Source: Mobula hypostoma (Eukaryota). Taken from it: a stretch of DNA of 64,000 nucleotides. The stretch is from assembly GCF_963921235.1 (NCBI RefSeq), contig NC_086097.1, forward strand, positions 15,872,001 to 15,936,000, written 5' to 3'. A program made the translations under genes and the position numbers. Under the pieces are notes generated by a model. It was given only the letters and a program-made list of their open reading frames with translations. It ran no database searches and was not told the origin of the DNA. Positions 4,838-27,441 of this stretch are shown here, in pieces (the first letter of the stretch is position 1; every line of letters begins with the position of its first letter).

Positions 4838-6204
4838 CACATGCCTATCTAAACATCCCTTAAAAGTTTCCAGCGTATTTGCCTCTACCACCATACCAGG
4901 CACACATTCCAGGCACCTACAGCTCTGAGTAAAAAAAAAAGCTTGCCTCACACATCTCCCTTCAATCTACCCCCTCTTGCCCTCAATGCATGCCCCATTT
5001 CAAACCTGGGAAACAGATACTCTCTGTCCACTCTATCTGTGCCTCTCATAATCTTGTAAACTTCTATCAGGTCTCCCCTCAGCCTCCAACGCTCCAGAGA
5101 AAACAACCCATAGAACGTTTGGTTTATCAAAGCAGCACTTATTTAAAGACCACATGTTTTGACAAAATGTCTCTTCCCCCTCCACCCCGCCCCCGTGAAC
5201 CATTGAAGTTCACGTGCTGGGGTTGCTCTCATTCCGCGTTGTGGATGTTCCTGTTGTCTGGCCTTGCCACTGTCAGGGTGCTTCTCCAGTCAGGATGGTC
5301 ATGTTTCTGATATTTCCAGGGTTAGGGTGTTCCCACAGTGACATCAGGGAAAGAAAGTATTTTCACTGTAACTTTGCAATTTACCCGTCTCCTTCGGTGC
5401 CATTGGCAGTTTCTGTCACGCGATTGCGGGAGTGGATTGACGTGAGCCAGGGAGTGGCTGCAAATTTCTTTGAGTGTCAAACGTGGAATATTACTGCACA
5501 GTACAGGCCCTTCGGCCCACAATGTTGTGCCGATCTTTTAACCTACATGAAGATCAGTTTAACCATTCCCTTCTACGTAGCTCTCCACGTTTCTGTCATC
5601 CTCGTGCCTACCTAAGAGTTTCTCAAAAGCCCCTAATGTGTCTGCCTCTACCACCACCCTGGCAGGGTGTTCCACACAACCAACACTCTCTGTGGAAAGA
5701 ACTTGCTTCTGACATCCACCCCTGCCCCCATACTTTCCCAAGTCCAAAGTAAATTTAAGATGACTGGAGGGAAGTAACTTTATGTCCCCTTACGTAAACC
5801 GTTTTCACCCCGGGGGTCCACTCGCAAACAAGAGAAAATCTGTAGATGCTGGAAATCCAAGCAACACACACAAAGTGCTGGAGGATCTCAGCGGGCCAGA
5901 CAGCATCTATGGAAAAAGTACAGTCAACGTTTCGGGCCAAGACCCTTCGGTAGGACTGGAGAAAAATAGAGGAGGTGGAGGGTATCAGGAGTGGGATACT
6001 TTCGATTGTTGTGGCGTGGATGAAATTACTGGAGAGACAGAGTCACTGGTAGATACAAAGCAGCTTCTTTATTCGACACAACAAGGTACAGCAGGCATCT
6101 TACGGACGGAAACAACAGGAATTCTGCAGATGCTGGAAATTCAAGCAACACATATCAAAGTTGCTGGTGAACACAGCGGGCCAGGCAGCATCTAGGAAGA
6201 GGTA

Positions 6205-6241
6205 CAGTCGACGTTTCAGGCCGAGACCCTTCGTCAGGACT
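6205..6241 (-). ncRNA. Minimal type-I hammerhead ribozyme motif
   Basis: Minus strand reads AGTC-CTGACGA-AGGGTCTCGGCCT-GAAAC-GTC-GACTG. Confidence 0.7.
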
Positions 6242-6245
6242 TCGT

Positions 6246-6283
6246 TAGTCCTGACGATGGGTCTCGGCCTGAAACGTCGACTG
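6246..6283 (+). ncRNA. Minimal type-I hammerhead ribozyme motif
   Basis: TAGTC-CTGACGA-TGGGTCTCGGCCT-GAAAC-GTC-GACTG. Core intact, one change at the base of helix II. Confidence 0.65.
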
Positions 6284-8134
6284 TACCTCTTCCTAGAGAT
6301 GCTGCCTGGCCCGCTGCGTTCACCAGCAACTTTGATGTATCTTACGGACGGAGACGCTTTCCGCAGAAAGGTCTGCTAGCTCAGTGTGGGCTTGATATTT
6401 ATATGCTAAGCACAAAGGCAATGGCTACTTAAAAAGTTACAGACAATGCATAGACAATGCTTCCTATTGAAGCTACATACAAAATCTCACACCATCCTTT
6501 CCTTCCGATGCCAACATGTCTGGGTTGATATCCACAGCCTTTAGGATTTACTTGGCATTTTGCGTGCTAACATAGAAGACAATTAATATTTATAATGTAT
6601 AGATAATACTGTCTTCGAAACTACAGCTTTAGGTCAAACTACTGCGCCAGAAGCATCTGGTTTTCACACCTTTTAGGAAGCCCATTGGGGTGGACTCAAT
6701 CCACAATACTTTGTCAAATAGAAGTCTGGTGGCCAAAGTCATTTAAGGGTAAACAAATCATCTACCCAAAAGTTGAGACAGATTGGTTCTTTGATTTCAG
6801 TTTAACAGTGGAGCAGAAAGATGATTCCTCTGATGGTTCAGCATTCCCTCACCCCAGCACTTATTAAAGGTCAAGCAGCGTTTTTGTGCCTGAGAGGAAT
6901 TTGAAGCCACACTCTGAGAGGGGTCAGTGAAACTGGACTATGGATTCAACTTCAATGTACATGAAAATATCTTTTGCTCCTCCAACTGAACTCACCTCTG
7001 TTCTATTGCTTTCAAAGAAAAAAGATGAAAATCTTCTATTGTAAATATATTATTTTGTGGAAAGCCATAAGAGAAGTAGCTATGAAAACTGCTGGGATGC
7101 CTAAGTATACCATTAAAGAAGAATTTGCCTTTCAGTGCATGCTTCAGATATGAGAGCATTACTGAAGTACAGTTAAAATTTATTTTAAAATCTCGGAAAG
7201 AAATTTCTCCTCTCAATCAAAGTTCAAAGTAAATTCATTATCAAAACACATAAATTTCACCATATACAACACTGAGATTCATTTTCTTGCAGGTATTCAC
7301 AGCAAATACAAAGAAACAACAGAATCAATGAAAGACCGCAGCCAACAAGACAACAAACTGTGCTTATAGGAAAAGAATAAATAAATAATCAATAAATATC
7401 GAGAACATTAGATGAAGAGACCATGAAAGTGAGTCCATAGATGTGGGAACATCTCAGTGCTGGGGCAAGTGAATTTCAGTGAAGTTATCTCCATTGGTTC
7501 AAGACCCTGATGGTTAGGGGGTAATAACTGTTCCTGAACCTGGTGGTGAGAGTCCTGAGGCTTCTGTACCACCTTCCTGAGAAGACAAGAGTACATAGCT
7601 ATCAGATCTCCATATCTTATGGCTGCTCCTTCAAGACTGCAATAATTCTCTTTCTGGTGTTTGCTTATATTTTTATTTTAAAATGCCATGATTTGACAAG
7701 GTTTCAGTGGATGGATTTATTGGATGAGGGAGGAGACTAGACCACTCTGTTGTTCCCTTGATGATTCAGCAGACTGACCTCTTTCCCACAAAAGAGGGTT
7801 TGGGATTTCTATTGAGATTAATTATTCCTGTATGGCCACTTTCAGTTTGAGAATGTTTGTTTATTTTGGAAAACATCATGAAATTTTGCTCGTGAAATGC
7901 ACACACTGACTTAGTTTGGCTCAGTGACTAAATGCTGGACTCGGTTGTGTGTGGACTCTGTCCTCACCTCTCGCTGCCTCGGTAAGGTAGTGAACAAATA
8001 TAAAGGTCCCATCCACTCCAAAATTTTCTCTTCGCCTCCACCCTCCGGTCAGGCAGAAGGTACAAAAGCTTGAAAGCTGTAACATCAGACTCAAGTACAG
8101 CTACTATCCTGACTTGAATAGTTTCCTAATACTG

Positions 8135-8385
8135 GGGACACCACGGTAGAACAATACTATAACAGCTTGGGATGTTAGAGTTCAATTCCAGCACTGTCTT
8201 TAAGGAGCTTTTACGTTCTCCCCTTTACTGCACGGATCTCCTCTGGGTGCTCTGTTCTTTTCCCACAGTCCAAAGCTGTAGCAGTTAGGTTAATTGGTCA
8301 TTGTAAATTGTCCTGTGACTAGGCTAGGGTTAAATAGGTGGCCGGCTGGGCTGTGTGGCTGGTTCCATGCTATATCTCTAATCTT
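8135..8385 (+). mobile_element. V-domain SINE (HE1-like); further copies at about 22675-22960, 35770-36105, 37195-37430(-), 44170-44440(-), 52197-52790, 58632-58910
   Basis: tRNA-like head (gttcaattcc), V-domain-like gggtgctccggtttcct...cagtccaaag...taggttaattggtcattg, CR1-like tail tgtatctctaaata. Confidence 0.75.
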
Positions 8386-8681
8386 AAAAAACAGCTAAAA
8401 TGAACTTTTGAAGTCTCAGTCTATCTCAGCATAGCCTTGTACCTTATTGTCTCCCTGCAGTGCACTTTTTCTGTAACTGTCACACTTCATTCTGCATTCT
8501 CTCACTATTTTCCATTGCACTATCTGAAGGTACTGACCTGATTCAATGATCTGTGTGGATGTCATGCAAAACAAAGTTTTATTCACCATACCTTGGTACG
8601 TGTGAAAATAATAAACCAATTTACCAATGTCCCCCTCACCAATCCAATCCTTGATTCATTTTGCTAACTGGATTTACCCTG

Positions 8682-8970
8682 ATAATAATAATAATAATAA
8701 TAGTAATAATAGCTTATTTATAAAGCAGTTTTTTTACAGATGACTTAGTTCAGAGTGCTTTACTTTGGGATGAAGTGCAAACATAAACTTAAAAGACTAA
8801 AAGATGTTAGTTAAAAGAAAGGTTAAATAAATAGGTTTTGTGCTGGCGTTAAAGTGTTAACTGCGTTGGCATCCCTTGAAGTTTTAGGTACTGAGAAATG
8901 ATCTAGTGCTTTAGATTAAGCAACTAGGTATTGAGTTTTACACTTTAGGACTGTAGTTCAAAATGATGTT
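8682..8970 (-). mobile_element. L2-like LINE 3' end with (TTA)n tail; second copy at 50492-50513 + 51173-51500
   Basis: (aat)n run followed by ttatttata.agca...cagagtgcttt. The two copies align with each other. Confidence 0.6.
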
Positions 8971-10689
8971 ATCAGGGCTATGGTGATATCAGGGTTAACT
9001 AACTAAGACTGGTGATCCAGAGTTTAACATCTTGAAACCTTGCATTCCAATCCCCAAGAATGTGACATCAGTATGTACCTTGTCATATAATCACCAAGCA
9101 TAGAACTAGTTCATTGTATTTTTCCACCAACCATCAAATATTCACTTATAGTGGAACAACGCTAATCATGTATTTTTTTTTATTTTTCCCACATCATGAT
9201 CAGGACCCCTGCACTACCTCCCCTCTCCATAATTCTATCACTCACTTGTGTAATTTACAGTGGCCAATTAATGGAATAAAGCCATGTGACCACATGGAGA
9301 GCATGCAAACTCCATATAGGCTGCACTGGAGATCAGTATTAAACCTGGGTCACACTGGTGCTTTGAGGCAATAGCTCTGTTCAGCCCCTGGAGAATATTA
9401 CTCGGTTGGACACTGAGAATGTAAGATGCTGCTGTTTAGTGGTGTGACAGATGGCAGGAAAGCTGCGTGGTCTTGGTGGTAATGAGGACTAGGCCTCAAA
9501 CCTTAGGCTTGTCTGCTGCTTCAGTCCAGAAGAGGAGACACTGGAGGTGGTGTAGCATGGTGTCCATGCTTGGTTGTGGGCTGGCCCCACCCATTGGTGC
9601 TACCCTCCAGTGTTTGTTTGGTGGTATGACAGGCTGAATTGTGTGCGTCTGCGCATGTCCGGGAACTGTGTCATCAATTTGCAGGACATGTCGCTCAGGG
9701 ACGGCTATATATATGGTTTTTTTGCTCTAAATTTTGAATGTACTGTGTATGTTTTGCACCTTGACCGCAGAGAAATGCTGTTTTGTCCGACTGTATTCAT
9801 ATATGGTTGAATGATAATTAAACTTGAATTTGATTTGATTAAGATCACCCTCATTTCAAAGTTCAAGTTCAGTTTATTGTCATTCAAGTGTACACATGTA
9901 TACTGCCAAACAAAATGTTTCTCCAGACCAAGGCGCACAACACAGTAACTCTCACACATACAACACATAAAGTATATCACAAATAAATTTACAAATAATC
10001 AGGTGCATTTATGATATAAGTTTAAAAAGTTAGCTGTCACAACTTACATGATGACACCTGGGTGGTGCCAAGAAGTTTACTAATCTCACGGCCTGGGCTA
10101 TGAATCCGTTTCCTATCCTAACGGTTCTTATTCTAATGCAATGGTACTTCCTGCTTGATGGTAGGGGTTCAGCAAGGTTGCTGGATGGATGGGAGGGATC
10201 ATTAACAATACTAAGGGCCCTACATCACAGGGTTCTGGATTAATATAAAATTATGTGTATGTTACTGTATACTACCCTGTGATTCATTTTCTTGTGGGCA
10301 TTCACAGTAGATACAAGGGAATACAATAGAATTCAATGAAAGTTGTTCATTTTGATTTTGAATGCAAATAAGTCATTTTTGCTGAACTCCAGCTCAACAT
10401 GTTCAAATTTTCTCATTACACAGTTGCTTCAGCTTGGGTATCAACATTTATTGAACTGCATACGACGCCATTATATTCCCTCTAAAGTCGGAGATGTAAG
10501 CCATACTCCGCATCTGATCTCGCCATTGTCGTAAGACTGCCCTTTTTATTCCATTGAACCTAAATGGCCCACATACAGACCTGTGAGAAGGTTGCGGTGG
10601 ATTGCCACACTAGCAAAGGTGTTAGCTGATACAGAGCGGGGTCTCAGGGTAGCAGAGCAGGCAGTCATTTTGCCTGAATACTAAGTATG

Positions 10690-12420
10690 TGTGTAAAGAG
10701 GAGCACAAAAGCATCTTCAACCTGGCCTTGTGAGGAGCATCTTGTACTTCAGAGTTTTCTGAGGAGATGTCAAAACAAATTGTGGCTGAAGGATGGTTGT
10801 AGTTGGGAGCTGAATGTCCAAGGTTACACATTGTATCAGAGCGATAGGAAGGTAGCCAAAAGGGGTGACGTGGCTCTGCTGGTAAAGAACGGTATCTAAT
10901 CATTAAATTGATGTGACAGAGGATCAGAAGATGTTAAATCCTTGTGGGTTGAGTTAAGAAATTGCAAGGGTAAAAGGACCCTGATGGCAGTTATATACAG
11001 GTCTCCCAACAGTGGTTGGGATGTGGACTACAGATTACAATGGGAAATAGAAAAGACATGGTAATATAATCAATCCAAAAATCTGAAATGCAAAGGGTCT
11101 TGGGAGTCCTTGTACAGAACTCCCTAAAGGTTATTTTGCAGGTTGAGCTGGTTGTGAGGAAGGCAAATGCAATGTTTGCATTCATTTCAAGAGGTATGGA
11201 ATACAGGAGCGGGGATGAGATGCTGAGGCTTTATGAGGCACTGGTGAGACCTCTCCCTGAGTATTGTGAACAGTTTTGGGTTCCTTATCGTAGAAGAGGT
11301 GTGATGGCATTAAAGAGGGCTCAGAGGAGGTTCACAAGGATGATTCCATGAATGAAAGATTTATCATATGAGGAACGTTTGATAGCTCTGAGCCTGTATG
11401 CACTGAAATTTAGAAGGATGGGTGGGGGGGGGGGGGATCTCATTGAAAACTTTTGAATGTTGAAAGGCCTAGACAGAATAGATGTGGAAAGGATATTTCC
11501 TGTGGTGAGGGAGTTTTGGACAAGGAGGCACAGCCTCAGGACAGAGGGGTGTCCATTTTAAAACAGAGATGCTGAGAAATCTCTTTAGACAGAGGGTGGT
11601 GAATTTGTGGAATTTGTTACCACAGGCACCCATGGAAGCCTGGTCATTGGGTGTACTTAAGGCAGAGATTGATTAATTTAAGGTTCCTGATTGGTCACAG
11701 CATCAAAGGGTACGGGGAAAAGGCCAGGGAGTGGGGCTGAGGAGGGGGAAAGAAAAGGATCATCTGTAATTGAATGATGGAGCAGACTCAATGGGCCAAG
11801 TAGCCTAATTCTGCTCCTATGTCTTATGGTCTTATAGTCTTATGGAGTTCAAGATCTGTGAGGTAATGTTTCAGCTCGCTGAAACACAGTTTAGACCACA
11901 CTTAGAATATTGTTTTTGATTCTGGTCACCTCATTATAGGTAAAATGTGGAAGCTTTAGAAAGGGTCCAGAGGAGATTTACCAGGATGCTGCTGGATTAG
12001 AAAAAAGGTCATGAGGAAAAGTTGAGCAAGCTAGGACTTTACTCTTTGGAGCAAAAGCGGATAACAGGCGAGTTGATAGGAGTTTCTCCCAGGGTGGCAA
12101 TGACCAGTGAATGAATGAGTGAGTGAATGAATACCAAAGAACATCCATTTAAGGTGAGTGGAGGAAAGTTTAGGGGAGATCCAGAGGTAGTTTTCTTTTG
12201 CACAGAATGGTGTGTCCCTGGAACACACTACCAGGGTGTTTGCGATTGATACAACAGGGAGAGTTAAGAAACTCTTAGGTAGTCACATGGATGTAAGGAA
12301 AATGGAGGGTTATGAGCTGTGTAAGAGGAAAGGATTAAATTAATCCTGAAGTAGGTTAAAAGGTTGGCACTATATAGTGAGCCAAAGGGCCCCTACTGAG
12401 CTGTACGGTTCTGTGTTCTA
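10690..12420 (+). mobile_element. CR1-clade LINE fragments (endonuclease remnant, ORF2 C-terminus and tail, then a second 3' fragment)
   Basis: ORF 11088-11351 'LGVLV..SLK...QVE.VVRKAN.M.AFISRG.EY...MLRLY.ALVRP..EYCEQFW'. Confidence 0.85.
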
Positions 12421-13562
12421 TCATGCTTGCCTGGCCATTTTGCCGTTCCTGACCTTGTGGACAAGGGAAAGTAGGAGGAGCATACCTTGTCTGTTGGTAA
12501 CTTGTTAGCAGGGAACAGCATGAGGATATGGTGTGGCGTGTGGAGGAGGATCAGATGTGAGGGTACTCTCATTGTCGGTGGTTTCAGCACTGCCACTGGC
12601 ATTTGCCATTAATGGACCACACTGTCCCTACCACGTGAGCATAGGCATGCAGTTAGGCCCATATCACCGTTCAGTCATCTATGCCTCCCTGAGTATATAC
12701 CTCTGAAAGTGTGCGTGTGAGATGAAGCACGTGAACGTCATGTATAAACACTGACAGATTTTTTGCCTGTAGCAAGGTACAGCAGATGAAACAAATACAC
12801 AAGAAATGCTCAGCAGGTCAGGTGGCATTGGAGGAGAAAGAAAAGTGTAAAACCTTAGATCTTTAGAACTGACGAGTAGTCATTGGCCTAAAAAATTAAT
12901 TGTCTCTTTGCACCTATCCTGCCTGTCTTATTGTTTCATGTGTTTTGTTGTCATTCAGTATCAGATATTTTCATTGTGTTTATTGGAGAGACTAAGTGGA
13001 ACTGGGGTGGTTCAAGCAGTTTGTGGTTTTGCATGGTATGACGTTTGAGGACATCACATTCACTTGTCCTGATGGCTCAAGCAAAAACATTCAACTTCAT
13101 TTTGTACTGCATTTACAGTAGATCCTCGGGATTTGGGTCCTAGTGTTAGTTTTGATTTTAAATTAATTACTATTCATGCTTTGTAATTCTCCTCAGAATT
13201 CCAACAGTCATTGTGTGAAGTCGAAGTCTGGCCCCATAAGTTCCTTGCATACATGTTTTGGATACGTTTTCATCGAACATAGTACATTACAGTACAGGCC
13301 TTTCGGCCAATAGTGTTGTGTCAACCTTTTAACCTACTCTAAGATCATTCTAACCCTTCCCTCCAAGATAACCTTCTATTTTATTTTCATTCATGTGCCT
13401 ATCTAAGAGTTCCTTAAATATCCCTAAAGAATCTGCTTCTACCACTGCCCCATCGGGGTGTTCCACGCACCCTAGTGCTTTCTATGTGGAGGAAAAACCT
13501 CCCCCTAACATCCCCCTATATTTTTCTTCAAATTACCTTAAAATTTGACTCATCATATTAGC

Positions 13563-13902
13563 CTCCAAGAGGAACACACCTTGTCATGGTTTGGAGGCTT
13601 GTGAGCCTCAATGACCTGGAGAGCTATGTTGGCTGGAGTCAGGGCTTTATGCTTTGGCTCTTGGTAGGTTCATCCATGCCCAAGAGGTCAAAGGGTAGAG
13701 GCCAGACTAAGAGTGGTCCTGTGGTCCTCTGGTCCTCCAGTTCAACTCAGGGCTAACAACACTGACTGGGCAAAAAAAATTGGAATGGAAACAGCAATGA
13801 AGGATACTTCTATATCTGTGTGCGATGGTTATGGCCAAGGACAGACAAAGATGGAGGACCTTCACTGTTGTCTTAAACATCAGTGGCGTATGGGCAGTAA
13901 CT
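13563..13902 (+). mobile_element. Bipartite non-autonomous RTE-type element (5'UTR + 3' tail); second copy at about 54058-54405 (-)
   Basis: TSD ATATTAGC at 13555-13562 and 13903-13910. Head ccttgtcatgg...cctcaatgacc...gagctatg resembles recalled RTE/Expander 5' ends. Tail encodes '..AKDRQRWR..'. Confidence 0.65.
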
Positions 13903-14892
13903 ATATTAGCGATTATACTCTGGGGGGGAAAAAGTCTCTGGCTGTCCACTCTATCAATGTCTCTTATCTTGTACACCTCTATCAAGTCACCTCTCATCCT
14001 CCTTTGCTTTGTTTCTGTTACCAAAGTAAAAAGACTCGGAATTTCACTGCACCTTTCTCACCTGTATTCTAGCGCCAATTAAGACAATAAGACATAGGAA
14101 CAGAATTGGGCTATTCAGTCATTGATTCTGCTCCACCATTCCATCATGGCTGGTTCATTACTTTACTTTATTGTCGCCAAACAATTGATACTAGAGCGTA
14201 CAATCATCACAGCGATACAGTATTTGATTCTGTGCTCCCTAGAGTACAGATAGATAGTAAATAGTTAAGATTTAAACTATAAATCATAAACAGAAAATAG
14301 AAAAGGGAAAGTAAGGTAGTGCAAAAAAAAACCAAGAGGCAGGTCCGGATATTTGGAGGGTACGGCCCAGATCCGGGTCAGGATCCGTTCAGCAGTCTTG
14401 TCACAGTTGGAAAGAAGCTGTTCCCAAATCTGGCCGTACGAGTCTTTGAGCTCTCACTCAATCCCATTATCCTATAAGACCATAAGACATAAGATTCAAG
14501 ATTCACATAGGAGCAGAATTAGGCCATTCTTCCCATTCAGTCTGTTCCACCATTCCATCATGGCGATTTATTATCCCTCTCAATCCCATTATCCTACAAG
14601 ACCATAAGACATAGGGGCAGAATTAGACTATTCGGCTTGTCAAGTACTTAAATAATTAAGTAATTATTAAAGTGTCTATAAATTTTGGCCAGTATCTATC
14701 TTTTCAATTAATCTTAACAAAATACCCTTCCATTCCATCCATGCCAACCAAGGTACCTTCCAGAGTTATTCACATTTGTTTGCATTTGACCCATCTACTA
14801 TGGAGACTATGAATGCTTCCATGAGCTTTCTGCTTTAGCCTCCTCCTATTCCTAGCTTAACACTAAAGGTGTGTATTTCTTTCTGCATGCAG

Positions 14893-15016: not shown

Positions 15017-17668
15017 TTAGACCATAAGATATAGATGCAGAATTGGGCCATATGGCCCATCAAGTCTGCTTCACCATTTCATTATGGCTGATCCATTTTT
15101 CCTCTCAGCCCCAAATTCTGCCTTCTTGCCCTCCCCCATGTCCCCTTAAGCTCTGACCATCTGACCAATCAAGAATCTATCAACCTCTGCCTTAAATATA
15201 CATAAAAACTTGGTCTCTGATTTACCACTCACTGCCTAAAGAAATTCCTTTTCATTTCCATTCTAAAATGACGCCCCTCTATTTTGAGGTTTTGTGCTCT
15301 GGTTTTAAATGCTCCCACCATAGGAAACATTCTTTCCACATCCACTCTACCAAGGTCTTTCACCATTTGATAGGTTTCAATTAGACCATTCCTCATTCTT
15401 CTAAATTCCAATGAATATAGACCCAGAGCTATCAAATGGTCTTCATATGACAAGCCGTTTAATCCTGCAATCATTTTCGTGAAGATCATTTGAACCTTGC
15501 CCAGTTTCCGCACATCCTTTCCGAGACAGGGGGCCTGAAACTGCTCGCAGTACCCAAGTGAGGCCTCACCTGTGCTTTATAAAGTCTCAACATTACATCC
15601 TTCCCTTTATATTCTAGTCCTCTTGAAATGAATGCTAACACCACATTTGCCTTCCTCTCCACAGACTCAACCTGCAAATTATCCCGTAGGGAATCCTGCA
15701 CAAAGACTCCCAAGACCCTTTGCACCTCAGTTTTTTTGTATTTTCTCTTCTATGTAGACAATAGTCAACACTTCCATTTATTCTACTAAAGCACATGACC
15801 ATACACTGTACTCCATCTGCCACTTCTTTGCCCATTCTCCTAATCTGTCTAAGTCCTTCTGTAGCCTCCATGTTTCCATAAAACTAAATGCCTCTTTGTC
15901 TATCTTTGTATCATCTGCAAACTTTGCAACAAAGCCATCAATTCCATCATCCAAATCATCAACATATAACATAAAAAGAATGGGTCCCAACACAGACCCT
16001 GGTCACTGGCAGCCAACCTGAAAAGGCTCCTTTTATTCCCACTCTTTGCTTCCTGCCTCTCATCCACTGCTTTATCCATGCTAGAATCATTCCTGTAATA
16101 CCATGGGCTCATAGCATGTTAAGCAACCTCATGTGGCACCTTGTCAAAGGACTTCTGAAAATCCAAGTACACAACCTCGACTGACTCTCCCTTGTCTGTC
16201 CTGCTTGTTATTTTCTCTAAGACTTCCAACAGAGTTGTCAGGTGAGATTTTCCCTTGAGGAAACCATGCTGACTACGGCCTATTTTATAATGTTCTTCCA
16301 AGTACCCTGAAACCACACCCTTAACCATCAACACCAACATTTTCCCAACTACTGAGGTGAGACTAAATGGCCTATAATTTCCATTCTTCTACCTCTCCCC
16401 CTTTTAGAAGAGTGGAGTGTCATTTGCAATTTTGAAAGATCATTACTAATGCCTTCTGAATCTCTTCAGCCACCTCTTTTGGAACTCTGATGTGTACACC
16501 AACTGTTCCAGGTGACTCATCTACCTTCAGTCCTTTCAGTTTCCCAAGAACCTCCTCTGTAGAAATGGTAATTTCACGCATTTGCAACCTGACACTTGGA
16601 ACTTCCACCATACTGCTAGTATCTTCCACAGTGGAGAATAATGCAAAATTCTTATTCAATTCATCCACCCTTTCCTTGTCCCGCATTACTACCTCTCCAA
16701 TCTTGTTTTCCAGTGATCTGTTATCCATTCTTGCCTCCCTTTTACACTTTATGTCTCTGAAGAAACTTTTGGTATTCTCTTTAGTACTATTGGCTAGCTT
16801 ACTTTCATATTCCATCTTCATCTTAATGACTTTTTTAGTTGCCTTCAGTTGGTATTGAAAGCTTCCAAATCTCCTAAATTCCCACTAATTTTTGCTCTAT
16901 TATATGGCTTCTCTTTGGCTCTTATCTTGGCTTTGACTTCCCTTATTAGCCATGGTTGTGCCTTTAGAATATTTCTTCCTCTTTGGATATATATATTCTG
17001 TGCCTTCCAAATTGCTTCCAGAAATTGCTGCTCTGCCGTCATCCCTGCCAGTGTTCTTTTTTAATCAAGTCTGGCCAACTCCTCTCTCATGCCTCTGTAA
17101 TTTCCTTTACTCCACTGTAATACAGATACATCTGACTTTAGCTTCTGTTTCTCAAATTTCAGAGTGAATTCAATCGTATTATGATCACTTTCCCCAAAGT
17201 GTTCTTTATACCTTAAGCTCCTTAATCAATTCTGGTTCATTGCACAGCACCCAATCCAGAAGAGCTGATCCTCTAGTGGGCTCAACCACAAGCTGCTCCA
17301 AAAAGCCATCTCATAGGTATTCCAGAAACTCCACCTCCTGGAATCTCATACCAATCTGATTTTCCCAATCTACCTGCATATTGAAGTCCCCCATGGCTAT
17401 TGCAATGTTGCCCTTTTGGTGTGCATTTTCAATCTCCCATTGTAACTTGTAGACCAAATCCTTACTACTGAGGGTCTGTATATAACTCCCATCAGGGTCT
17501 TTTTACCCTTTTAGTTCTTTAGCTTTATCCACAATAATTTAACACCTTCCAACTCTATGTCACCTCTTTCTAATGATGTAATTTCATTTTTTTTTTACCA
17601 ACAGTACCATGCCTTCCTGTCTGTCCTTATGATACAATGTGTATCGTTGGACATTAAGTTCACAGCTA
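15017..17668 (-). mobile_element. CR1-clade LINE ORF2 remnant (endonuclease to RT to tail), frameshifted
   Basis: ORF pieces 'SQHGFLKGKSHLT.LLE', 'YLDFQKSFDKVPH', 'LGPILFMLYVDDLD...KFADDTKI'. Tail (tcttatgg). Confidence 0.92.
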
Positions 17669-18104
17669 GGGAGCACTTTTAAATCAATCTAGATGGTTAC
17701 TTGGCTTGAATGCTTTTTTCCCTCTTGTGTAGTTTCATACTGAGGAGAGTTTAGGCACCTGCTTCTCACACGTTCCCTGTGAGGGTATTTACAGTGCTTA
17801 TCTGTACAAGCTAAATGGCTGGCTGCTGTCACCTCATGCTCTTCTACTTGGATCTCACTGGGAATGGTGTAGAGTCCTAGTGACTTACGAGGGGTGATTG
17901 ATAAGTTTGTGGCCTATGGTAGAAGGAGACAATTTTAGAAAACCTGGCACAGTTATTTTTCAACATAGTCCCCTCCTACATTTACACACTTAGTCCAGCC
18001 GTCGTGAAGCATACGGATCTTGGACCTCCAGAAACTGTCCACAGCAGGGGTGATTATGCAGAAAGTTTGGAGTTAATAACTCATCAGGGTTGATTGATAA
18101 GTTC

Positions 18105-19527
18105 TAACTGAAGGAAGAGTGAGTAAGGGATTTGAAAGCTGGAGGGGGAGGGGGAGATGCAAAATGATAGGAGAAGACAGGAGGGGGAGGGATAGAGCCG
18201 AGAACTGGACAGGTGATAGGCAAAAGGGGATACGAGAGGATCATGGGACAGGAGGTCCGGGAAGAAAGACAGCGGGGGGGGTGACCCAGAGGATGGGCAA
18301 GAGGTATATTCAGAGGGACAGAGGGAGAAAAAGGAGAGTGAGAGAAAGAATGTGTGCATAAAAATGAGTAACAGATGGGGTACGAGGGGGAGGTGGGGCC
18401 TTAGCAGAAGTTAGAGAAGTCAATGTTCATGCCATCAGGTTGGAGGCTACCCAGACGGAATATAAGGTGTTGTTCCTCCAATCTGAGTGTGGCTTCATCT
18501 TTACAGTAGAGGAGGCCGTGGATAGACATGTCAGAATGGGAATGGGATGTGGAATTAAAATGTGTGGCCACTGGGAGATCCTGCTTTCTCTGGTGGACAG
18601 AGCGTAGATGTTCAACAAAGTGGTCTCCCAGTCTGCGTCGGGTCTCACCAATATATAAAAGGCCACATCGGGAGCACCGGACGCAGTATATCACCCCAGT
18701 CGACTCACAGGTGAAGTGATGCCTTACCTGGAAGGACTGTTTGGGGCCCTGAATGGTGGTAAGGGAGGAAGTGTAAGGGCATGTGTAGCACTTGTTCTGC
18801 TTACATGGATAAGTGCCAGGAGGGAGATCAGTGGGGAGGGATGGAGAGTCGAATGGACAAGGGAGTTGTGTAGGGAGCGATCCCTGCGGAATGCAGAGAG
18901 AGGGAGGGAGGGAAAGATGTGCTTAGTGGTGGGATCCCGTTGGAGGTGGCGGAAGTTACGGAGAATAATATGTTGGACCCGGAGGCTGGTGGGGTGGTAG
19001 GTGAGGACCAGGGGAACCCTATTCCTAGTGGGGTGGTGGGAGGATGGAGTGAGAGCAGATGTACGTGAAATGGGGGAGATGCGTTTAAGAGCAGAGTTGA
19101 TAGTGGAGGAAGGGAAGCCCCTTTCTTTAAAAAATGAAGACATCTCCCTCGTCCTAGAATGAAAAGCCTCATCCTGAGAGCAGATGCGGCGGAGACGGAG
19201 GAATTGCGAGAAGGGGATGGCGTTTTTGCAAGAGACAGGGTGAGAAGAGGAATAGTCCAGATAGCTGTGAGAGTCAGTAGGCTTATAGTAGACATCAGTG
19301 GATAAGCTGTCTCCAGAGACAGAGACAGAAAGATCTAGAAAGGGGAGGGAGGTGTCGGAAATGGGAGGGAGGTGTCGGAAATGGGAGGGAGGTGTCGGAA
19401 ATGGACCAGGTAAACTTGAGGGCAGGGTGAAAGTTGGAGGTGAAGTTAATAAAGTCAATGAGTTCTGCATGCGTGCAGGAAGCAGCGCCAATGCAGTCGT
19501 CGATGTAGCGAAGGAAAAGTGGGGGAC
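18105..19527 (-). mobile_element. Penelope-like retroelement, left arm (RT C-terminal/thumb region + GIY-YIG endonuclease), 5'-truncated and frameshifted
   Basis: ORF 18724-19491 'LPFLDL...TDVYYKPTDSHSYLDYSSSHP..KNAIPFSQFLRLRRICS'. ORF 18401-18694 'VIYCVRCSRCGLLYIGETRRRL..F.EH'. Confidence 0.95.
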
Positions 19528-20648
19528 AACTCTGCTCTTAAACGCATCTCCCCCATTTCACGTACATCTGCTCTCACTCCATCCTCCCACCACCCCACTA
19601 GGAATAGGGTTCCCCTGGTCCTCACCTACCACCCCACCAGCCTCCGGGTCCAACATATTATTCTCCGTAACTTCCGCCACCTCCAACGGGATCCCACCAC
19701 TAAGCACATCTTTCCCTCCCTCCCCTCTCTGCATTCCGCAGGGATCGCTCCCTACACAACTCCCTTGTCCATTCGTCCCCCCCATCCCTCCCCACTGATC
19801 TCCCTCCTGGCACTTATCCGTGTAAGCGGAACAAGTGCTACACATGCCCTTACACTTCCTCCCTTACCACCATTCAGGGCCCCAAACAGTCCTTCCAGGT
19901 GAGGCATCACTTCACCTGTGAGTCGACTGGGGTGATATACTGCGTCCGGTGCTCCCGATGTGGCCTTTTATATATTGGTGAGACCCGACGCAGACTGGGA
20001 GACCGCTTTGCTGAACATCTACGCTCTGTCCGCCAGAGAAAGCAGGATCTCCCAGTGGCCACACATTTTAATTCCACATCCCATTCCCATTCTGACATGT
20101 CTATCCACGGCCTCCTCTACTGTAAAGATGAAGCCACACTCAGGTTGGTGGAACAACACCTTATATTCCCTCTGGGTAGCCTCCAACCTGATGGCATGAA
20201 CATTGACTTCTCTAACTTCCGCTAGGCCCCACCTCCCCCTCATACCCCATCTGTTACTCATTTTTATGCACACATTCTTTCTCTCACTCTCCTTTTTCTC
20301 CCTCTGTCCCTCTGAATATACCTCTTGCCCATCCTCTGGGTCCCCCCCCCGTCTTTCTTCCCGGACCTCCTGTCCCATGATCCTCTCGTATCCCTTTTGC
20401 CAATCACCTGTCCAGCTCTCGGCTCCATCCCTCCCCCTCCTGTCTTCTCCTATCATTTTGCATCTCCCCCTTCCCCTCCAGCTTTCAAATCCCTTACTCA
20501 CTCTTCCTTCAGTTAGTCCTGACGAAGGGTCTCGGCCTGAAACGTCGACTGCGCCTCTTCCTATAGATGCTGCTTGGCCTGCTGCGTTCACCAGCAACTT
20601 TGATGTATGTTGCTTGAATTTCCAGCATCTGCAGAATTCCTGTTGTTT
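19528..20648 (+). mobile_element. Penelope-like retroelement, right arm (GIY-YIG + complete 3' pLTR end)
   Basis: ORF 19899-20225 is GIY-YIG. Inverted relative to the left arm. Whole insert is flanked by TSD TTGATTGATAAGTTC (18090-18104, 20647-20661). Confidence 0.95.
20514..20551 (+). ncRNA. Minimal type-I hammerhead ribozyme motif of the PLE pLTR
   Basis: TAGTC-CTGACGA-AGGGTCTCGGCCT-GAAAC-GTC-GACTG: CUGANGA and GAAA cores, GUC cleavage triplet, helix I UAGUC/GACUG, loop-less palindromic helix III (ACGU). Confidence 0.75.
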
Positions 20649-21381
20649 GATTGATAAGTTCGCAGCCTAGGGTAGAAGGAGATGAGTTATTAACTTCAAA
20701 CTTACTGCATTTTCACTTAAAGAGTTGAACTGCATGTGCATGTAACGAGAGCTGTATAACTCATCTCCTTCTACCTTAGGCCACGAACTTATCAATCACC
20801 CCTGCTGTGGACAGTTTCTGGAGGTCCAAGATCCATATGCTTCACGACCGCTGGACTAAGAGTGTAAATGTAGGAGGGGACTATGTTGAAAAATAAATGT
20901 GCCAGGTTTTGCTAAAATTGACTCCTTCTATCATGGGCCATGAACTTATCACTCACCCCTGGTAGAATGAACTTTGAGCCAGTGACGCATGTTGACTAGC
21001 TTCCAGCTAACTTAATTGATGGGTGGGTGCCTGCAATATTTAAAAAAAGAAAATAAATAAATTTGTGACGTTTGTAACTATTTTAATTTTAAAGGGAGTG
21101 GCAGATTATTAGGGCTGCTCTTCCACATGGCAAGATTTGAGTCATTAGAGTGGATTGCAACCAAACTGATCCAGCAGGAAAAATATGTAGGAAGAGATAA
21201 GGTCAAGCTGCCTCCTCCCCAATCCTGTTTTAAACAAACATGGCTAAAATTGAGATAGTATGTCCTCCACTAACCACCCCCCATTGCCACCTGCCCCTTT
21301 CTCAGAGGATAAAATATCGTTAAAATGCTTTAAGATATTAAACTGTAAACATTGAAAACTACCTAGCATTGTTATTCCGAA

Positions 21382-21463
21382 GCAGCAGTTCCCAGCCTTT
21401 TTTTATGCCGTGGATCCTTACCATTAACTGAGGGGTCTGTGGACCCTGGGTTGGGAACCCCTG
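21382..21463. mobile_element. ~80-95 bp hAT (Charlie-like) MITE; copies at about 26879-26975, 34011-34086, 35995-36078, 55808-55887, 57737-57818
   Basis: TIRs CAG(G)GGTTCCCAACC / GGTTGGGAACCCCTG. 8 bp TSD CTCTAAGG is exact around the 26879 copy and 7/8 around the 57737 copy. Confidence 0.75.
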
Positions 21464-21571
21464 TTTTAAAGACTGGGTTTCCATGTTATTTCAGCAGTAG
21501 TTCCATTGAATAAAGCTGTTGAAATAAACTCTGCCAGGTTTTATATTTTGGCCATGCCTTAGTTTTATTTA

Positions 21572-21886
21572 GTGTGGATACGTGGCCAAGTGGTTAAGGT
21601 GTTTGACTAGCGATCTGAAGGTCGTGAGTTCAAGCCCCAGCCGAGGCAGCGTGTTGTGTCCTTGAGCAAGGTACTTAATCACACAGTGCTCTGCGACGAC
21701 ACCGGTGCCAAGCTGTATGGGCCAAGCTAATGCCCTTCCCTTGGACAACATCGGTGTCGTGGAGAGGGGAGACTTGCAGCATGGGGAACTGCCAGTCTTC
21801 CATACAACCTTGCCCAGGCCTGCGCCCTGGCGAGTGAAGACTTTCCAGGTGCAGATCCATGGTCTCGCAAGACTAACGGATGTCTT
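21572..21886 (+). mobile_element. tRNA-derived SINE with CORE-like middle and RTE-like tail
   Basis: A box tggccaagtgg, B box agttcaagcc, gtgtccttgagcaaggtacttaa (CORE-like), tail ccatggtctcgcaagact. TSD TTAGTTTTATTTA at 21559-21571 and 21887-21899. Confidence 0.85.
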
Positions 21887-23123
21887 TTAGTTTTATTTAC
21901 AATACTTGCCCTTCTGGTTTGAAGAGCAAGTATGAAACTTCTCCCTTTATAAAGGTTAAGATTCCAGTTCGATTTTTCTTTTCCCCCTAAAAATTGGCAT
22001 GAACACAATGGCTAATCAGCCTCCTCGTGTGCCATACATTGCAAAGCGATATTTAGCTGTTCAGTTCTCAAGTAAGCCCCAGTGTTCAGTTGGATGTGTA
22101 TCTCTGTGCTTTTTTACCCATGTCGCCTTTGCAGAACCACAATACACTGGATGCTTGCCTGGATGCTCTAGGCTTTGTGCCTGTGGACTCACTTTTGTTC
22201 TGAATGCTATTTGCTTACTTCTATTATTTGCACAATCTATTTTTTTTCCTCTGCTCATTGGCTGTTTGACGGTCTTTTTTAGTATGGGTTCTTCGTTTTG
22301 TGGCTGCCTGTAAGGAGACGAATCTCAAGGTTGTATAATGTATCCATTCTTTGATAATAAATGTACTTTCAACTTTGAACTTTAGAAGCTGTTTGTTCTG
22401 ACCAATTGATGGTGATGACAGGGTCATGTACCATGACTACTAACTCTGAACCTAGATTACCTTGCAGGTATTTATTTGAGTAAAGAAAATACTGTTTGCA
22501 AGAAACTTCATTCATATTATAACTCATGAAATGATTGTGAAACCCCATTTGACTTACTAATATCCTTGCCCTGTCTGACTTTTGTGTGGTCAAAGACCCA
22601 GCAATATGGCTAAATTTTAACTACCTCCTGAATGCAGAGCCACCTGGGGGTTGGGCACTAAATGCTTGCCTCATCAAGGTAGCGTAGTGGTTAGTGTGAC
22701 GTTATTACAGCGCGGGGTGTTGCAGTTCAGGACTTAGTTCCAGCGCTGTCTGTAAGAAGTTTGCACGTTCCCCCTGTCACCGCGTGAGTTTCCTCTGGGT
22801 GCTCCGGTTTCCTCTGCAGTCCAAAGACATACCGGTTACTAGGTTAGTTGGTCATTGTAAGTTGTTCTGTGAATAGACTAGGGTTAAATAGGTGGATTGG
22901 TGGGCAGCAAAGCATGTCGGACCAGAAGGGCCTGTTCTGTGCTGTATCTCTAAATAAAAAATAAAAATAAATAGATTGTAAATCCCATGAATTGCTTAGT
23001 GAAATGAATACAAAATGGGAGAAAAAAAGGTGCTCTGGATTCCTGATCATGAGCATCCCCTAAGTAATAGGACATCTTGGTCTCCAGATATAAACCAATT
23101 TGAAATGAATTATTTTTCTGCAG

Positions 23124-23209
23124 ATGGATTCTCTGATGAATTTGGAAAGCTGAATTTGAAACTTAGTTACAGACCAGATGTGGAACAGATCTGGATCACT
23201 GTGGTACAG
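23124..23209 (+). CDS. TC2N: TC2N coding exon, start of C2A domain
   Basis: tttttctgcag| ... |gtgagc. Encodes DGFSDEFGKLNLKLSYRPDVEQIWITVVQ (TC2N-type 'FGRLNVKLFY...VEQIWITVLQ'). Confidence 0.95.
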
Positions 23210-23429
23210 GTGAGCTCTAAGTGTGCCCTGTGAATGCTATAATCTTGCTTGTTGCTTCGCTCCCACCTTGTATACCTCCTCTGGATGACAACGTCCCGTT
23301 GACCGAAGACTCCGTTTCCTAATTCATTACAAAGGGAAACCAGCCTCGAGTTCCTTCACCTTGGCTCCACACGAATTTCCACTCCATCTATCTGTTTCAC
23401 CATATTTGGAACTGATGTATTGTCATTGG

Positions 23430-26010
23430 CCTCCACAGCTGCTTGTGGCAAAGAGTTCCACAGATTCACCACCCTCTCTGCATTCTAAAAGGAAGTCCCT
23501 CTATTCTGAATTCCACAGATTCACCACTCTCTGGCTAAAGAAATTTGTCCTCCTCTCCATTCTAAATGGGTACCCTTCTATTCTAAGGCTGTGTCCTCTG
23601 GTCTTAGCCTCTCCCACCATAGGAAACATCCTCTCCACATCCACCCTATCACCATTTGATAGGTTTCAATTCCAGTGAATACAGACCCAGAGCCATCAAA
23701 TGTTTTTCATGTGACAAGCAATTCAAACCTGCAGTCATTTTTGTGAACCTCCTTTGAATCCTTTCCAGTTTCAGCACATCTTTTCAAAGATAAGGGGCCT
23801 AAAATTTCTCACAATACTCCAGGCGAGGCCTTACCAGTGCTTTATGAAGTCTCAGCAGTACATCTTTGGTTTTATATTGTAGTCTTCTTGAAATGTATGC
23901 TAACATTGTATTTGCTCTCCTCACCACAGATTCAACCTGCAAATTAACCTTTAGGGAACCCTGCACAAGGACTTCCAAGTGCCTTTATGCCTCAGTTTTT
24001 TGTATTTTCTCTCCATTTAGCCAATAGTCAACCTTTTTGTTTCTTCTACTGAAGTGCATGACCACACACTTCCTGACACACTATTCCATCTGCCATTTCT
24101 TGGCCCATTCTCCTAAGCTATCTGAGTCTGTCTGTAGCCTCTAATTCCTTAAAATGACCTGCCCCTACACCGATCTTCATATCATCTGGAGACCTTGCAA
24201 AAAAAGCTACCAATTCCATCATTCAAATCATTGATATATAATGTAAAAAGGATCGGTCCCAACCCAGACCCCTGTGGGACAACACTAGTCACCGGCAGCC
24301 AGCCACCCTTTATTCCCACTCTCTGCCTCCTGCCTATCAACCAACAACTTTATCCATGCTAGAAACTTTCCTGTAATACCACGGGCTCATAGCTTGTTCA
24401 GCACCCTCATGTGTGGCACCTTGTCAAAGGCCTTCTGAAAATCCCAGTACATAACATCAACCAATTCTCCTTTGTCCATCTTGCTTTTTACTTCTTCAAA
24501 GAATTCCAACAGATTTGTTGGGCCAATTTTTCCCTTGAGGGAACCATGCTGACTACAGCCTATTTTATCATGTGCCTCCAAGTAGCCTGAGGCCTCATCC
24601 TTAATATCTTCCCACCCAGACTAACTGGCTGATAGATTCCTTTCTTCCGCCTCAGGAATATAATGTGTCTCCTTGGACATTAAGCTCCCAGCTATAATCT
24701 TGCAGCTGTGATTCACTGATGCCTACATCATACCTGCCAGTCTGCAACTCTGTTGCAAGTTCATCTACCTTATTCAGTGTACTGCATGAATTCGGATACA
24801 ATACCTGCTGTCCTGTATTCACCCTTTTCGATTTTGTCACACCATGCTCAACCTTTTGATTCTTAACGTTGTCTGAGGTCTTACCAACAGCTGCCTCCAC
24901 AACCTCTCCACTAACATTTCTGGCACTCTGGTTCCCATCCCCCTACAACTCCACCGTACAGCATTGAGGTATTAGTCCCTCTCCAGTTCAGGTGCAAACC
25001 GTCCCCTTTTGTACAGGTACCATCTTCCCTGGAAGTTAGCCCAATGTGACTTTCCACTGTTAGGTCATCCTCCCCAAAAGTATCCAAAGTTATATACCTG
25101 TTGTTGAGGGGATAGCCACAGGGGTACTCTGCACTGGCTCCTTAACTCCTTTCCCCTTCCTAACTGTCATCCAATTTCCTGTGTCCTGCACTTTGGGTGT
25201 AACTACCCCTCTATATGTCCTATCTGTCACCCCCTCAGCCTCCCGAATGATCCATAGCTCATTCAGTTCCAACTCCTTAATGCAGTTTGTTAGAAGCTGC
25301 AGCTGGATGCACTTCTGGCAGTTACAGTCGTCAGGGACGCTGGAGGTTTCCCTTCCTTTCCACATCCTGCAAGAGGAGTATTGTACTATCCTCAAACAAC
25401 AGGAATTCTGCAGATACTGGAAATTCAAGCAACATACATCAAAGTTGCTGGTGAACGCAGCAGGCCAGGTAGCATCTATAGGAAGAGGCGCAGTCGACGT
25501 TTCAGGCCGAGACCCTTCGTCCTGACGAAGGGTCTCGGCCTGAAACGTCGACTGCGCCTCTTCCTATAGATGCTGCCTGGCCTGCTGCGTTCACCAGCAA
25601 CTTTGATGTATGTTGGTTGTATTGTACTATCCTGCCTGTCATCTTTACCTAGCAGAGCAGATATAAAGAAGAGAAGGAAAAAAACTTGAACATTTCTTTC
25701 TCTGAGTGAAGCCTCAAAGAGCTAAAGCCTTAAAATCACCATTCTGACTATGTCCACTCAGGTGACAGCTTCTAGTCAAAGCTCTATTACACTGCCGTGA
25801 ACCACTCCTGCCTTTTATCCCTGGGCGGTGGACCTGATCGAAGTGCCTTCCTTTCCAAACTTCCGATGTCCAGATTGGCCACTGGTCAAAGCTCTGTTAT
25901 GTTGCCGCAAACTACTCCTGTCTTTTATCCTCGGTGGTGGACGTGATTGAAGTCTTCTCCTCTCCAAACGTCCAATGTCTAGATTAGCCACTGGTCAAAG
26001 CTCTATTACT
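23430..26010 (-). mobile_element. CR1-clade LINE retaining 5'UTR, ORF1 N-terminus, endonuclease start and RT, with large internal deletions
   Basis: ORF 25090-25428 'SSCRMW...VPDDCNCQKCIQLQLL...ELE' (CR1 ORF1 Cys-rich/coiled coil). 24652-24900 endonuclease start. 24387-24581 RT. Confidence 0.88.
25393..25618. mobile_element. Palindromic Penelope pLTR mini-insertion (plus-strand hammerhead core 25519-25552)
   Basis: TSD GTATTGTACTATCCT at 25378-25392 and 25619-25633. Near-perfect inverted arms. Confidence 0.9.
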
Positions 26011-26137
26011 GGGAATGGGTGTCAAATACATCTGATTCTACGGGAGATATAGCACAGAAACAGGTCCTACAACCCAATTTATCCACACCAGCCAAGCTGG
26101 CTACCTAAGCTAGTCCCATTTAACTGCATTTGTCCCT

Positions 26138-26603
26138 TATGATTCCAGGAATGAAAGGGTTATCATACGAGGAACGTTTGATGGCACTGGGTCTGTACCC
26201 ACTGGAATTCAGAAGGATGAGGGGGGACCTCATTGAAACCTTTCAAATGTTGAAAGGTCTAGACAGAGTAGATGTGGAAAGGATGTTTCCCATGGTGGGA
26301 GAGTCTAGGACAAGAGGGCACAGCCACAGGATAGAGGGGAGCCCTTTCAAAACAGGGATGTGGTGAAATTTTTTTTGCCAAAGGTTGGTGGAATCTGTTG
26401 CCACATGCAGCTGTGGAGGCCAGGTCGTTGGGTGTTTTTAAGGCAGAGATTGATAGGTTCTTGATTGGACATGGCATCAAAGGTTACGGGGAGAAGGCTA
26501 GACACTGGCCGGGTTGAGGAGATGGGTAAAAAGGATCAGCCATGATTGAATGGCGGAGCAGACTCAATGGGCCAGATGGCCTAATTCTGCTCCTATGTCT
26601 TAT
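26138..26603 (+). mobile_element. CR1 3' end inserted in an older antisense CR1 fragment
   Basis: ORF 26130-26366 'GMKGLSYEERLMALGLYPLEFRRMRGDLIETF'. Confidence 0.88.
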
Positions 26604-27032
26604 ATCCCTCTAAATCGTTCCTATCCATGTATCAGTCCAACTATCTTTTAAAATTGTAACAGCTCTTCCACATGCTCTGGCAGTTCATTCCACATATCTA
26701 TCACCCGCTGTGTTGGGGAAACTTGCTCCTCATGTCCTCGTTACGGTTTCCCCTCTCACCTTAAAACATCAGCTTTAGACTCTCCTACCCTGGGGTGGGG
26801 GGAGAAAGACTATTCATCATATCTGTGGTTTAATGAACCTCCCTTTCTGGTCACCCCTCAGCCTTCTATGCTCTAAGGCAAGATTTCCAATCTGGGGTGC
26901 ACAGACCCTCCCCTCCCCGGTTAATGGTAGAGATCCGTGACATAAAAAAGATTGGAACCCCCCCTCCCCTCACCGCTCTAAGGGTAACAGTCCCAGCCTT
27001 TGTAGTCTCTTCCTTAAGACCTGTAGTGCTGC

Positions 27033-27441
27033 TATAGGGTTTCATAAATAAAACGCAGAGGTGTTTTAATTTTAAGGGAAACTGTAACAACTAACTTTAT
27101 TGTAAACCAAATGCAGAACATAAAGCCTGGTAGAAAACTTCACATAATTATGAAGCAAACAACAGGAATTCTGCAGATGCTGGAAATTCAAGCAACACAC
27201 ATCAAAGTTGCTGGTGAACGCAGCAGGCCAAGCAGCATCTATAGGAAGAGGCGCAGTCGGCCTGAAACGTCGACTGCGCCTCTTCCTATAGATGCTGCTT
27301 GGCCTGCTGCGTTCACCAGCAACTTTGATGTGTGTTACATAATTATGTCATCATGTCAGACTAGCCTCTTAAAGTGAACCTCAGCTTAATGTCAGTGGCT
27401 GTGAATTAGGCATATATTTCAACCCCTTGCATTACCTTACA
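27033..27441 (-). mobile_element. Short solo LTR-like element interrupted by a PLE hairpin (27153-27336)
   Basis: Aligns end to end with the reverse complement of 27545-27754. PLE TSD ACATAATTATG at 27142-27152 and 27337-27347. Confidence 0.75.

Follow-up and report, generated by a model that had tools for sequence, protein, structure and literature searches.

A young, abundant Penelope-like family of rays carrying the canonical head-to-head insertion layout

Penelope-like elements (PLEs) that encode an endonuclease (EN+) are described as typically leaving an inverted, 5'-truncated copy and a one-sided tail of 30-40 bp (PMC8557442 and PMC8969392). For rotifer elements, PMC3846280 presents the layout inside target-site duplications (TSDs) of 9 and 10 bp with a 31-bp tail, and PMC8557442 calls the formation of tandem and inverted PLE insertions undefined. 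The second closely related system is PAc, a Poseidon element of the anole (PMC11167929), whose tail is the stretch between two internal reverse transcriptase (RT) start sites on the sense RNA. This element cuts and extends both strands and is predicted to act as a dimer, its hammerhead mutants still insert, and some 55-60 nt of its RNA past the RT start are required (the first 172 nt of the open reading frame (ORF), with the start at 111-118). A link from two-strand priming to inverted insertions was not found in the available text of that paper. The present analysis concerns a 64,000-nucleotide stretch of the ray Mobula hypostoma (NC_086097.1, positions 15,872,001 to 15,936,000; hereafter the window) in which four young PLE inserts lie within the gene TC2N. 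The inserts appear to be 5'-truncated head-to-head PLE ends, each probably built at its own site by two priming events.

TC2N coding exons lie on the + strand at approximately 1.1k, 14.9k, 23.1k, 28.0k, 31.3k, 38.9k, 41.9k and 52.9k. The NCBI TC2N protein of Mobula birostris (P0001) is covered in full by eight + strand exons, which lie between 1.0k and 53.0k and differ from it at a few residues; the exon at 41889-42098 (70 residues) is identical to it. Since the exon positions bracket them, all four inserts are intronic, as a first-pass annotation of the window had proposed; its coordinates for four inserts of one shared head-to-head architecture were confirmed. Arm coordinates below are quoted on a reference, the right arm of insert 2 (19527-20648).

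6097..6110, + strand: insert 1, left TSD copy, 14 nt (partner 6339-6352)
6111..6241, - strand: insert 1, tailed arm (reference 20515-20648), with a complete minimal hammerhead motif at 6241-6206
6240..6338, + strand: insert 1, tail-less arm (reference ~20507-20606), with a hammerhead motif at 6247-6282
6339..6352, + strand: insert 1, right TSD copy
18090..18104, + strand: insert 2, left TSD copy, 15 nt (partner 20647-20661)
18105..19528, - strand: insert 2, tail-less arm, starting at reference 20516, the hammerhead 5' edge; frameshifted
19527..20648, + strand: insert 2, tailed arm, with the RT end, endonuclease frame (19704-20225), 3' untranslated region (UTR) and end of the pseudo-long terminal repeat (pLTR)
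20647..20661, + strand: insert 2, right TSD copy
25378..25392, + strand: insert 3, left TSD copy, 15 nt (partner 25619-25633)
25393..25521, - strand: insert 3, tailed arm (reference 20521-20648), hammerhead core incomplete
25519..25618, + strand: insert 3, tail-less arm (reference 20516 to ~20612-20615), complete hammerhead core with a 3-bp helix I
25619..25633, + strand: insert 3, right TSD copy
27142..27152, + strand: insert 4, left TSD copy, 11 nt (partner 27337-27347)
27153..27259, - strand: insert 4, tailed arm (reference 20546-20648 plus 4 nt), no hammerhead core
27257..27336, + strand: insert 4, tail-less arm (reference 20532-20611), no hammerhead core
27337..27347, + strand: insert 4, right TSD copy; site empty in organism C

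Each insert joins one arm that reaches the element end at 20648 (with 1 and 4 extra nt in inserts 3 and 4) to one head-to-head arm that stops short of it. The outer ends of the tail-less arms fall at ~20606, 20516, 20612-20615 and 20611 in inserts 1 to 4, a shortfall of 33-42 nt in three inserts and of 132 nt in insert 2. The three short inserts measure 228, 226 and 184 bp (inserts 1, 3 and 4), while insert 2 spans 2.5 kb and its tail-less arm runs from the 3' UTR through the GIY-YIG endonuclease and RT thumb up to the YIDD motif of the RT. The 5' ends of the tailed and tail-less arms lie at 20515/20507 in insert 1, 20521/20516 in insert 3 and 20546/20532 in insert 4; those of insert 2 lie at 19527 and about 428 nt farther upstream, respectively. 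Microhomology at the junction amounts to 2 nt in insert 1 and to 3 nt in both insert 3 and insert 4; for insert 2, residues of the homolog P0032 suggest 2 nt. All four internal junctions differ, in agreement with the first-pass description of unique junctions. The duplications of 11-15 bp that it placed around the whole units proved exact (14, 15, 15 and 11 nt), although at a TSD end as many as 2 nt could also be assigned to the element; a TSD of at least 11 nt arose in 2 of 3000 random end pairs in the same search box.

Canonical EN+ PLE insertions (PMC8557442; Pen2a_Av and Pen2_Av in PMC3846280) have the same inverted pLTR pair, single tail, single TSD and heavy 5' truncation. The inserts in TC2N differ in having TSDs of 11-15 nt rather than the 8-10 nt of the rotifer examples, in the reduction of three of them to pLTR ends (184-228 bp), and in the 132 nt missing from the short arm of insert 2 against the canonical 30-40 nt. 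The one-sided short arm corresponds to the published 30-40 bp tail (PMC8557442, PMC3846280, PMC11167929), a point that the first-pass annotation did not note.

The element itself is recognizable as an EN+ PLE from an RT followed by a C-terminal GIY-YIG domain, a CCHH motif, a pLTR with a minimal hammerhead, and an inverted truncated partner with a TSD. Its endonuclease frame at 19704-20225 matches the Pfam GIY-YIG family (PF01541) with an E-value of 1.2e-4 and 22.7 bits against a cut-off of 22.6. A Pfam search of the RT-thumb frame returned no match; residues 162-525 of the RT-bearing homolog P0042, including YIDD, align along the left arm of insert 2 (E 7e-91). Both arms of insert 2 are frameshifted. 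As read from the translation, CSRC between VIY and YIG together with two downstream histidines forms the CCHH motif, which in EN+ PLEs comprises two cysteines between GIY and YIG (PMC8557442). The linker before the endonuclease reads CKRNKCYTC, or CX4CxxC, and fits the zinc-finger-like motif CX2-5CxxC that is present in Neptune and Nematis but absent in Penelope/Poseidon (PMC8557442). Judged by the translated linker motif, the element is classed here as Neptune-type, and PAc belongs to another clade, Poseidon, whose members lack the linker zinc finger. Close protein homologs come from Mobula, Hypanus and sharks. Pattern scans for motifs of the family gave no matches in metagenome contigs and none in prokaryotic genome contigs. 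Insert 2 thus holds RT (YIDD) and GIY-YIG remnants, and the earlier proposal that the short copies resemble miniature inverted-repeat transposable elements (MITEs) yet are products of retrotransposition proved right.

Several further features accompany the coding part of the element. A stop-free frame of 156 codons (20200-20670, + strand) extends in insert 2 from the 3' UTR across the hammerhead and the tail; it has no Pfam match and may include the start of the element's ORF. Within the RT region of insert 2, a unit of about 20 nt is tandemly triplicated at 19343-19402, where contigs of other copies skip 39-41 nt. The NCBI ray gene models P0034, P0035, P0043 and P0048 contain endonuclease sequence of the element, through either mis-annotation or exonisation; these models include mucin-2, divergent protein kinase domain 1C and chitinase domain-containing 1.

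With two priming events, formation of an insert could proceed as follows. The GIY-YIG endonuclease of the element, probably as a dimer, would nick both target strands 11-15 nt apart, and both 3' ends would prime RT on sense RNA. Priming at an outer site would give the tailed arm; the tail-less arm would come from an inner site some 37 nt upstream, with one RNA probably serving as template for both. Synthesis would usually break off early, in many cases where the hammerhead begins on its 5' side, after which the two cDNA ends would join by microhomology of 2-3 nt and fill-in would yield the inverted pair and its TSD. Ribozyme cleavage is likely not needed for insertion. Two-strand priming is favoured since it explains the single TSD, the presence of one tail per pair, the two fixed ends and the unique junctions. 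The stretch between the two predicted start sites is the tail:

20612..20648, + strand: 37-nt tail between two putative reverse-transcription start sites

Other copies point to the same two sites. Contigs from four public runs (X1, X2, X5 and X9) were compared over 19100-27600, a range that starts within insert 2, past insert 1 and past the flank to the left of insert 2. In unique stretches the contigs of X1 and X2 are identical to the window; these two runs could be the very source of the window and do not count as independent. The end of an unrelated repeat (26603) is joined to 27155 in 20, 18, 7 and 0 contigs of X1, X2, X5 and X9, and to 27192 in 10, 11, 5 and 0. Because 27155 and 27192 map to reference 20650 and 20613, 37 nt apart, other genomic copies start at the same two places as the arms described here. 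Single-arm copies likewise end at either of the two sites. PAc shares with this element two RT starts downstream of the hammerhead that bound the tail, as well as a hammerhead in the pLTR (PMC11167929). Beside these observations, a young single-arm copy at 47936-48024 (92% to the reference) ends inside the tail, at ~20619-20623, with no TSD found. In organisms A and B, though not in organism C, the element has landed repeatedly at the 3' end of the repeat at 26140-26603. This repeat is presumably LINE-like.

The distribution of tails can be followed into older head-to-head pairs of the window.

34185..34401: tail on left arm; decayed 13-nt TSD with 2 mismatches
35370..35531: tail on right arm; weak alignment, no convincing TSD
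37678..38419: tail on right arm; decayed TSD of 14-15 nt
38589..38773: tail on right arm
50512..51170: tail on right arm; nested single copy inside
57259..57475: degenerate tail on right arm

Decayed TSDs are recognizable in three of these six. Exactly one tail is found in all ten head-to-head pairs of the window (p ~0.001 if the arms chose their ends independently), the pairs having been chosen by eye in one window and the old ones aligning at roughly 65-80%. This manner of selection is one of several points that weigh against two-strand priming. There is no full-length copy of the element within the window, which in an EN+ PLE would show the whole ORF in a partial tandem with direct pLTRs. 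The tail-less arm of insert 2 starts at 20516, about 95 nt upstream of the inner start, which is unexplained; the same position is also the spot of many 5' truncations. In the short inserts the 5' ends of the two arms are 5-14 nt apart, as would be predicted equally if one strand folded back and copied itself, and the haplotypes shared between arms fit fold-back or later gene conversion too. The in vitro data were obtained with the Poseidon clade, whose start sites are AC-rich; those of the present element are GU-rich on the coding strand. Lastly, the tail-less arm extends farther 5' in 4/4 young pairs but in 3/6 old ones (37.7k, 38.6k and 57.3k), and not, or not clearly, at 34.2k, 35.4k and 50.5k; since the total of 7/10 is not significant (p = 0.34), an order of events on one RNA is not shown. 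A longer tail-less arm was accordingly not retained as a rule and serves as a lead.

That lead may be phrased more specifically. It is possible, though doubtful, that insertion is an obligatory two-enzyme reaction on one RNA, in which the subunit at the inner site leads and the outer one follows; each pair would then have one tail, the young tail-less arm would reach farther 5', and rare tail-to-tail pairs with a TSD-sized spacer would be an alternative resolution of this intermediate. An old tail-to-tail pair does occur at 29390-29600, where a tail-less + arm faces a tailed - arm across a spacer of 7-12 nt, with one tail. A dual-primed intermediate with unmelted DNA between its nicks would leave such a spacer, and this is one decayed case. 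Among other old structures, a single tail-less copy at 50660-51078 appears to be nested in the pLTR of an older hairpin within a 13-14 nt duplication (50646-51091), which suggests self-insertion.

The strongest competitor, less likely but still a live one, is fold-back self-priming, in which the antisense RNA or first cDNA snaps back and copies itself and the asymmetry of the tail comes from endonuclease resolution. Fold-back was proposed from palindromic head-to-head junctions in rotifer elements (PMC3846280), the tail is attributed to endonuclease resolution in PMC8557442, and the short loops (5-14 nt), junction microhomology and identical arm haplotypes of the inserts in TC2N are in keeping with it. 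However, the loop belongs to the tail-less arm in 4/4 young inserts and the supposed copy exceeds its template by 33-132 nt. Because the looped arm is shorter at its outer end, fold-back needs trimming or a second priming. PMC11167929, moreover, places both borders of the tail at RT starts on sense RNA, and the two alternative ends of single-arm copies speak against fold-back as well. A hybrid, with fold-back of a tail-less cDNA captured by a short tailed cDNA, still involves two primings and is counted within two-strand priming as the best explanation.

A second alternative was raised by the first-pass annotation, which left a choice between one stereotyped integration reaction and a non-autonomous, ribozyme-bearing hairpin class mobilised in trans. 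Under the latter, the units of 184-228 bp would be transcribed and mobilised as hairpins and would thereby amplify. Their similar sizes and the position of junctions near the hammerhead 5' edge (inserts 1 and 3; old pairs at 34.2k and 50.5k) would suit such a class, as would reports that pLTRs can mobilise other sequence in trans (PMC3846280) and that tandem retrozymes are PLE derivatives (bioRxiv 10.64898/2026.07.22.740005). Those published non-autonomous derivatives are nonetheless head-to-tail tandem arrays with a hammerhead per unit, whereas the units here are head-to-head and single and so differ from non-LTR retrozymes. The same layout is seen, moreover, in units of 2.5 kb and 0.75 kb that include coding sequence. 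Scoring of variable sites at 20552, 20553, 20574, 20580 and 20607 showed that both arms of a short insert share one haplotype and that the four inserts represent four haplotypes; the apparent mismatch of insert 1 at 20607 falls in its TSD, and the left arm of insert 2 does not span these sites. Because all four junctions and haplotypes differ, a self-amplifying hairpin family is unlikely.

Contig joints broaden this comparison. No head-to-head pLTR junction stands among the best-supported 15 of 9,347 joints, some joints being uncounted, and the same unit with the same internal junction at many loci was found neither there nor among the four inserts. In favour of a hairpin class, one head-to-head junction in organism B has a depth of 504, where single-copy contigs have 31-62 (about 45); in organism A, one joint of tail-to-tail type has depths of 174 and 342 against 11-15 for single-copy contigs. 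A few junctions therefore recur in roughly 10-30 copies, perhaps because they were duplicated or travel inside another repeat. If, as in the anole RNA, about 55-60 nt past the RT start were required, inserts ending at that site would serve poorly as templates, as they would lack the required part. The inserts are likely dead on arrival. Altogether, amplification as a hairpin class is improbable, and one stereotyped reaction is the better of the two earlier options.

The fate of the ribozyme bears on this alternative too. A minimal type-I motif is located at the pLTR end of insert 2:

20514..20551, + strand: minimal type-I hammerhead motif, predicted cut after 20546; G-U replaces G-C at 10.1-11.1

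Using a descriptor taken from PMC4209133, a scan of the whole window identified four motifs, all of them within the inserts described here; insert 1 has one in each arm, and inserts 2 and 3 have one apiece, in the right arm. The claim that the insertions carry hammerheads therefore stands for inserts 1-3, with a complete motif in four of eight arms, and fails for the insert at 27153-27336, which has none. At 20514-20551 the core boxes, helix I, helix II and the palindromic 15.2-16.2 positions are all present. In common with the metazoan PLE hammerheads of PMC4209133, the motif has the CUGANGA / GAAA / GUC core, an unpaired base before helix II, a palindromic ACGU for helix III and a 5-bp helix I. 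It departs from them in the G10.1-C11.1 pair, which is highly conserved according to PMC4209133 although outside the search descriptor of that paper: all four young motifs, recognized from sequence alone, have G-U, while an older copy at 5.9k has G-C. Opposite-strand hammerhead pairs 100-700 bp apart were already described in PMC4209133.

Structure predictions give the ribozyme little room in a hairpin transcript. The hammerhead monomer does not adopt the hammerhead fold (z 0.26), as expected for motifs without helix III, which would cleave themselves as dimers or with help from protein, and the pLTR end folds no more stably than its shuffles (z -0.53 and -1.33). The transcripts of the three short inserts are predicted to form one long duplex of -147 to -200 kcal/mol, so their hammerhead motifs would be buried, contrary to a ribozyme-bearing hairpin class. 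An Rfam search of 5000-30000 returned no hammerhead family at E <= 1. Its sub-threshold matches to mir-3926 (52 and 48 bits against 82) were rejected, as they fall below threshold and reflect the long hairpin alone. The start of the tailed arm of insert 4 at 20546-20549 was similarly rejected as a record of ribozyme cleavage, since it concerns one of eight arms and the partner arm runs 14 nt past the site. Many arm ends lie within 20507-20524. Directly before hammerhead helix I, a pyrimidine tract ending in CAG (20490-20512) resembles a splice acceptor; in Drosophila virilis, the end of an intron falls at the corresponding point of the motif (PMC4209133).

The contigs also speak to age and abundance. 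Among the contig pieces listed, organism B differs from the window by approximately 1.8% and organism C by approximately 7.6%. At the site of insert 4, one contig of organism C has 19 letters where the window has 218, close to the 23 predicted after removal of the element and one TSD (218 minus 195), and organism C thus holds the empty site. More than 25 pLTR-end matches occur in 64 kb of the window. Relative to single-copy contigs, the summed depth on the 3' UTR of the element is about 29-fold lower in C than in A and 13-fold lower than in B; since the ratio is far lower in C, an expansion of the family after the split from C is suggested. The depth ratio in organism A is 3.8e5, which after division by 31 for contig overlap still exceeds 1e4 copies, a figure to be taken as an order of magnitude alone because depth is no copy number. 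Ray genomes probably hold more than ten thousand young copies of the element. The arms of inserts 1-3 differ by about 1-4%, with 18 substitutions in ~990 nt of insert 2, so assembly or read fold-back is an unlikely source of insert 2. The remaining alternative, that independent insertions of this dense and, at 50.66k, apparently self-inserting family met by chance or that the pairs are assembly artefacts, has the lack of a junction-bridging contig among those listed for X1, X2 and X5 (19100-27600) in its favour, but it is highly implausible given the single TSD around each whole pair, the divergence of the arms, the empty site and the ten single tails.

Two other kinds of insertion invite comparison. 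During twin priming of L1, both target strands prime cDNA, the products are joined by microhomology and one TSD results. The inverted part of such an L1 insertion is a different, upstream piece of the RNA. The PLE inserts are unlike this in that their two arms are copies of one and the same 3' region, begun at two fixed positions. A literature search covering sources other than subscription reviews found no twin-priming account of PLE inversions. MITEs, for their part, are short and combine inverted repeats with a TSD. The inserts in TC2N have instead asymmetric ends, a variable TSD length, unique junctions and the sequence of a retroelement end.

Some aspects of the surrounding DNA complete the description. 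A consensus sought across the eight nicks of the four inserts gave none that was convincing. Insert 2 lies in a host element:

17886..20960: host element of insert 2, with terminal inverted repeats; insert-free sister copy at about 41000-41440

This host is short, non-coding and presumably mariner-like. Its terminal inverted repeats are long, and its end motif recurs internally; one of these internal motif copies is the landing spot of insert 2. Elsewhere in the window, a 50-nt unit is repeated in tandem about nine times at 32841-33297, and an exon-like stop-free frame (53479-53628, + strand) lies just past the last TC2N coding exon.

Since the structure is known, the finding itself alters little. 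The layout is already published, and what is new is a young, very abundant family of rays, of Neptune type by its linker, that carries this canonical layout. For annotation, such hairpins mimic MITEs or microRNA precursors and belong filed as retroelement ends. For mechanism, an abundant young family allows counts of tails per pair, of the arm that holds the loop, of TSD lengths and of tail-to-tail spacers that can separate two-strand priming from fold-back. If the tentative two-enzyme reaction on one RNA is true, ray genomes would be an in vivo record that settles how the inverted insertions of PLEs form.

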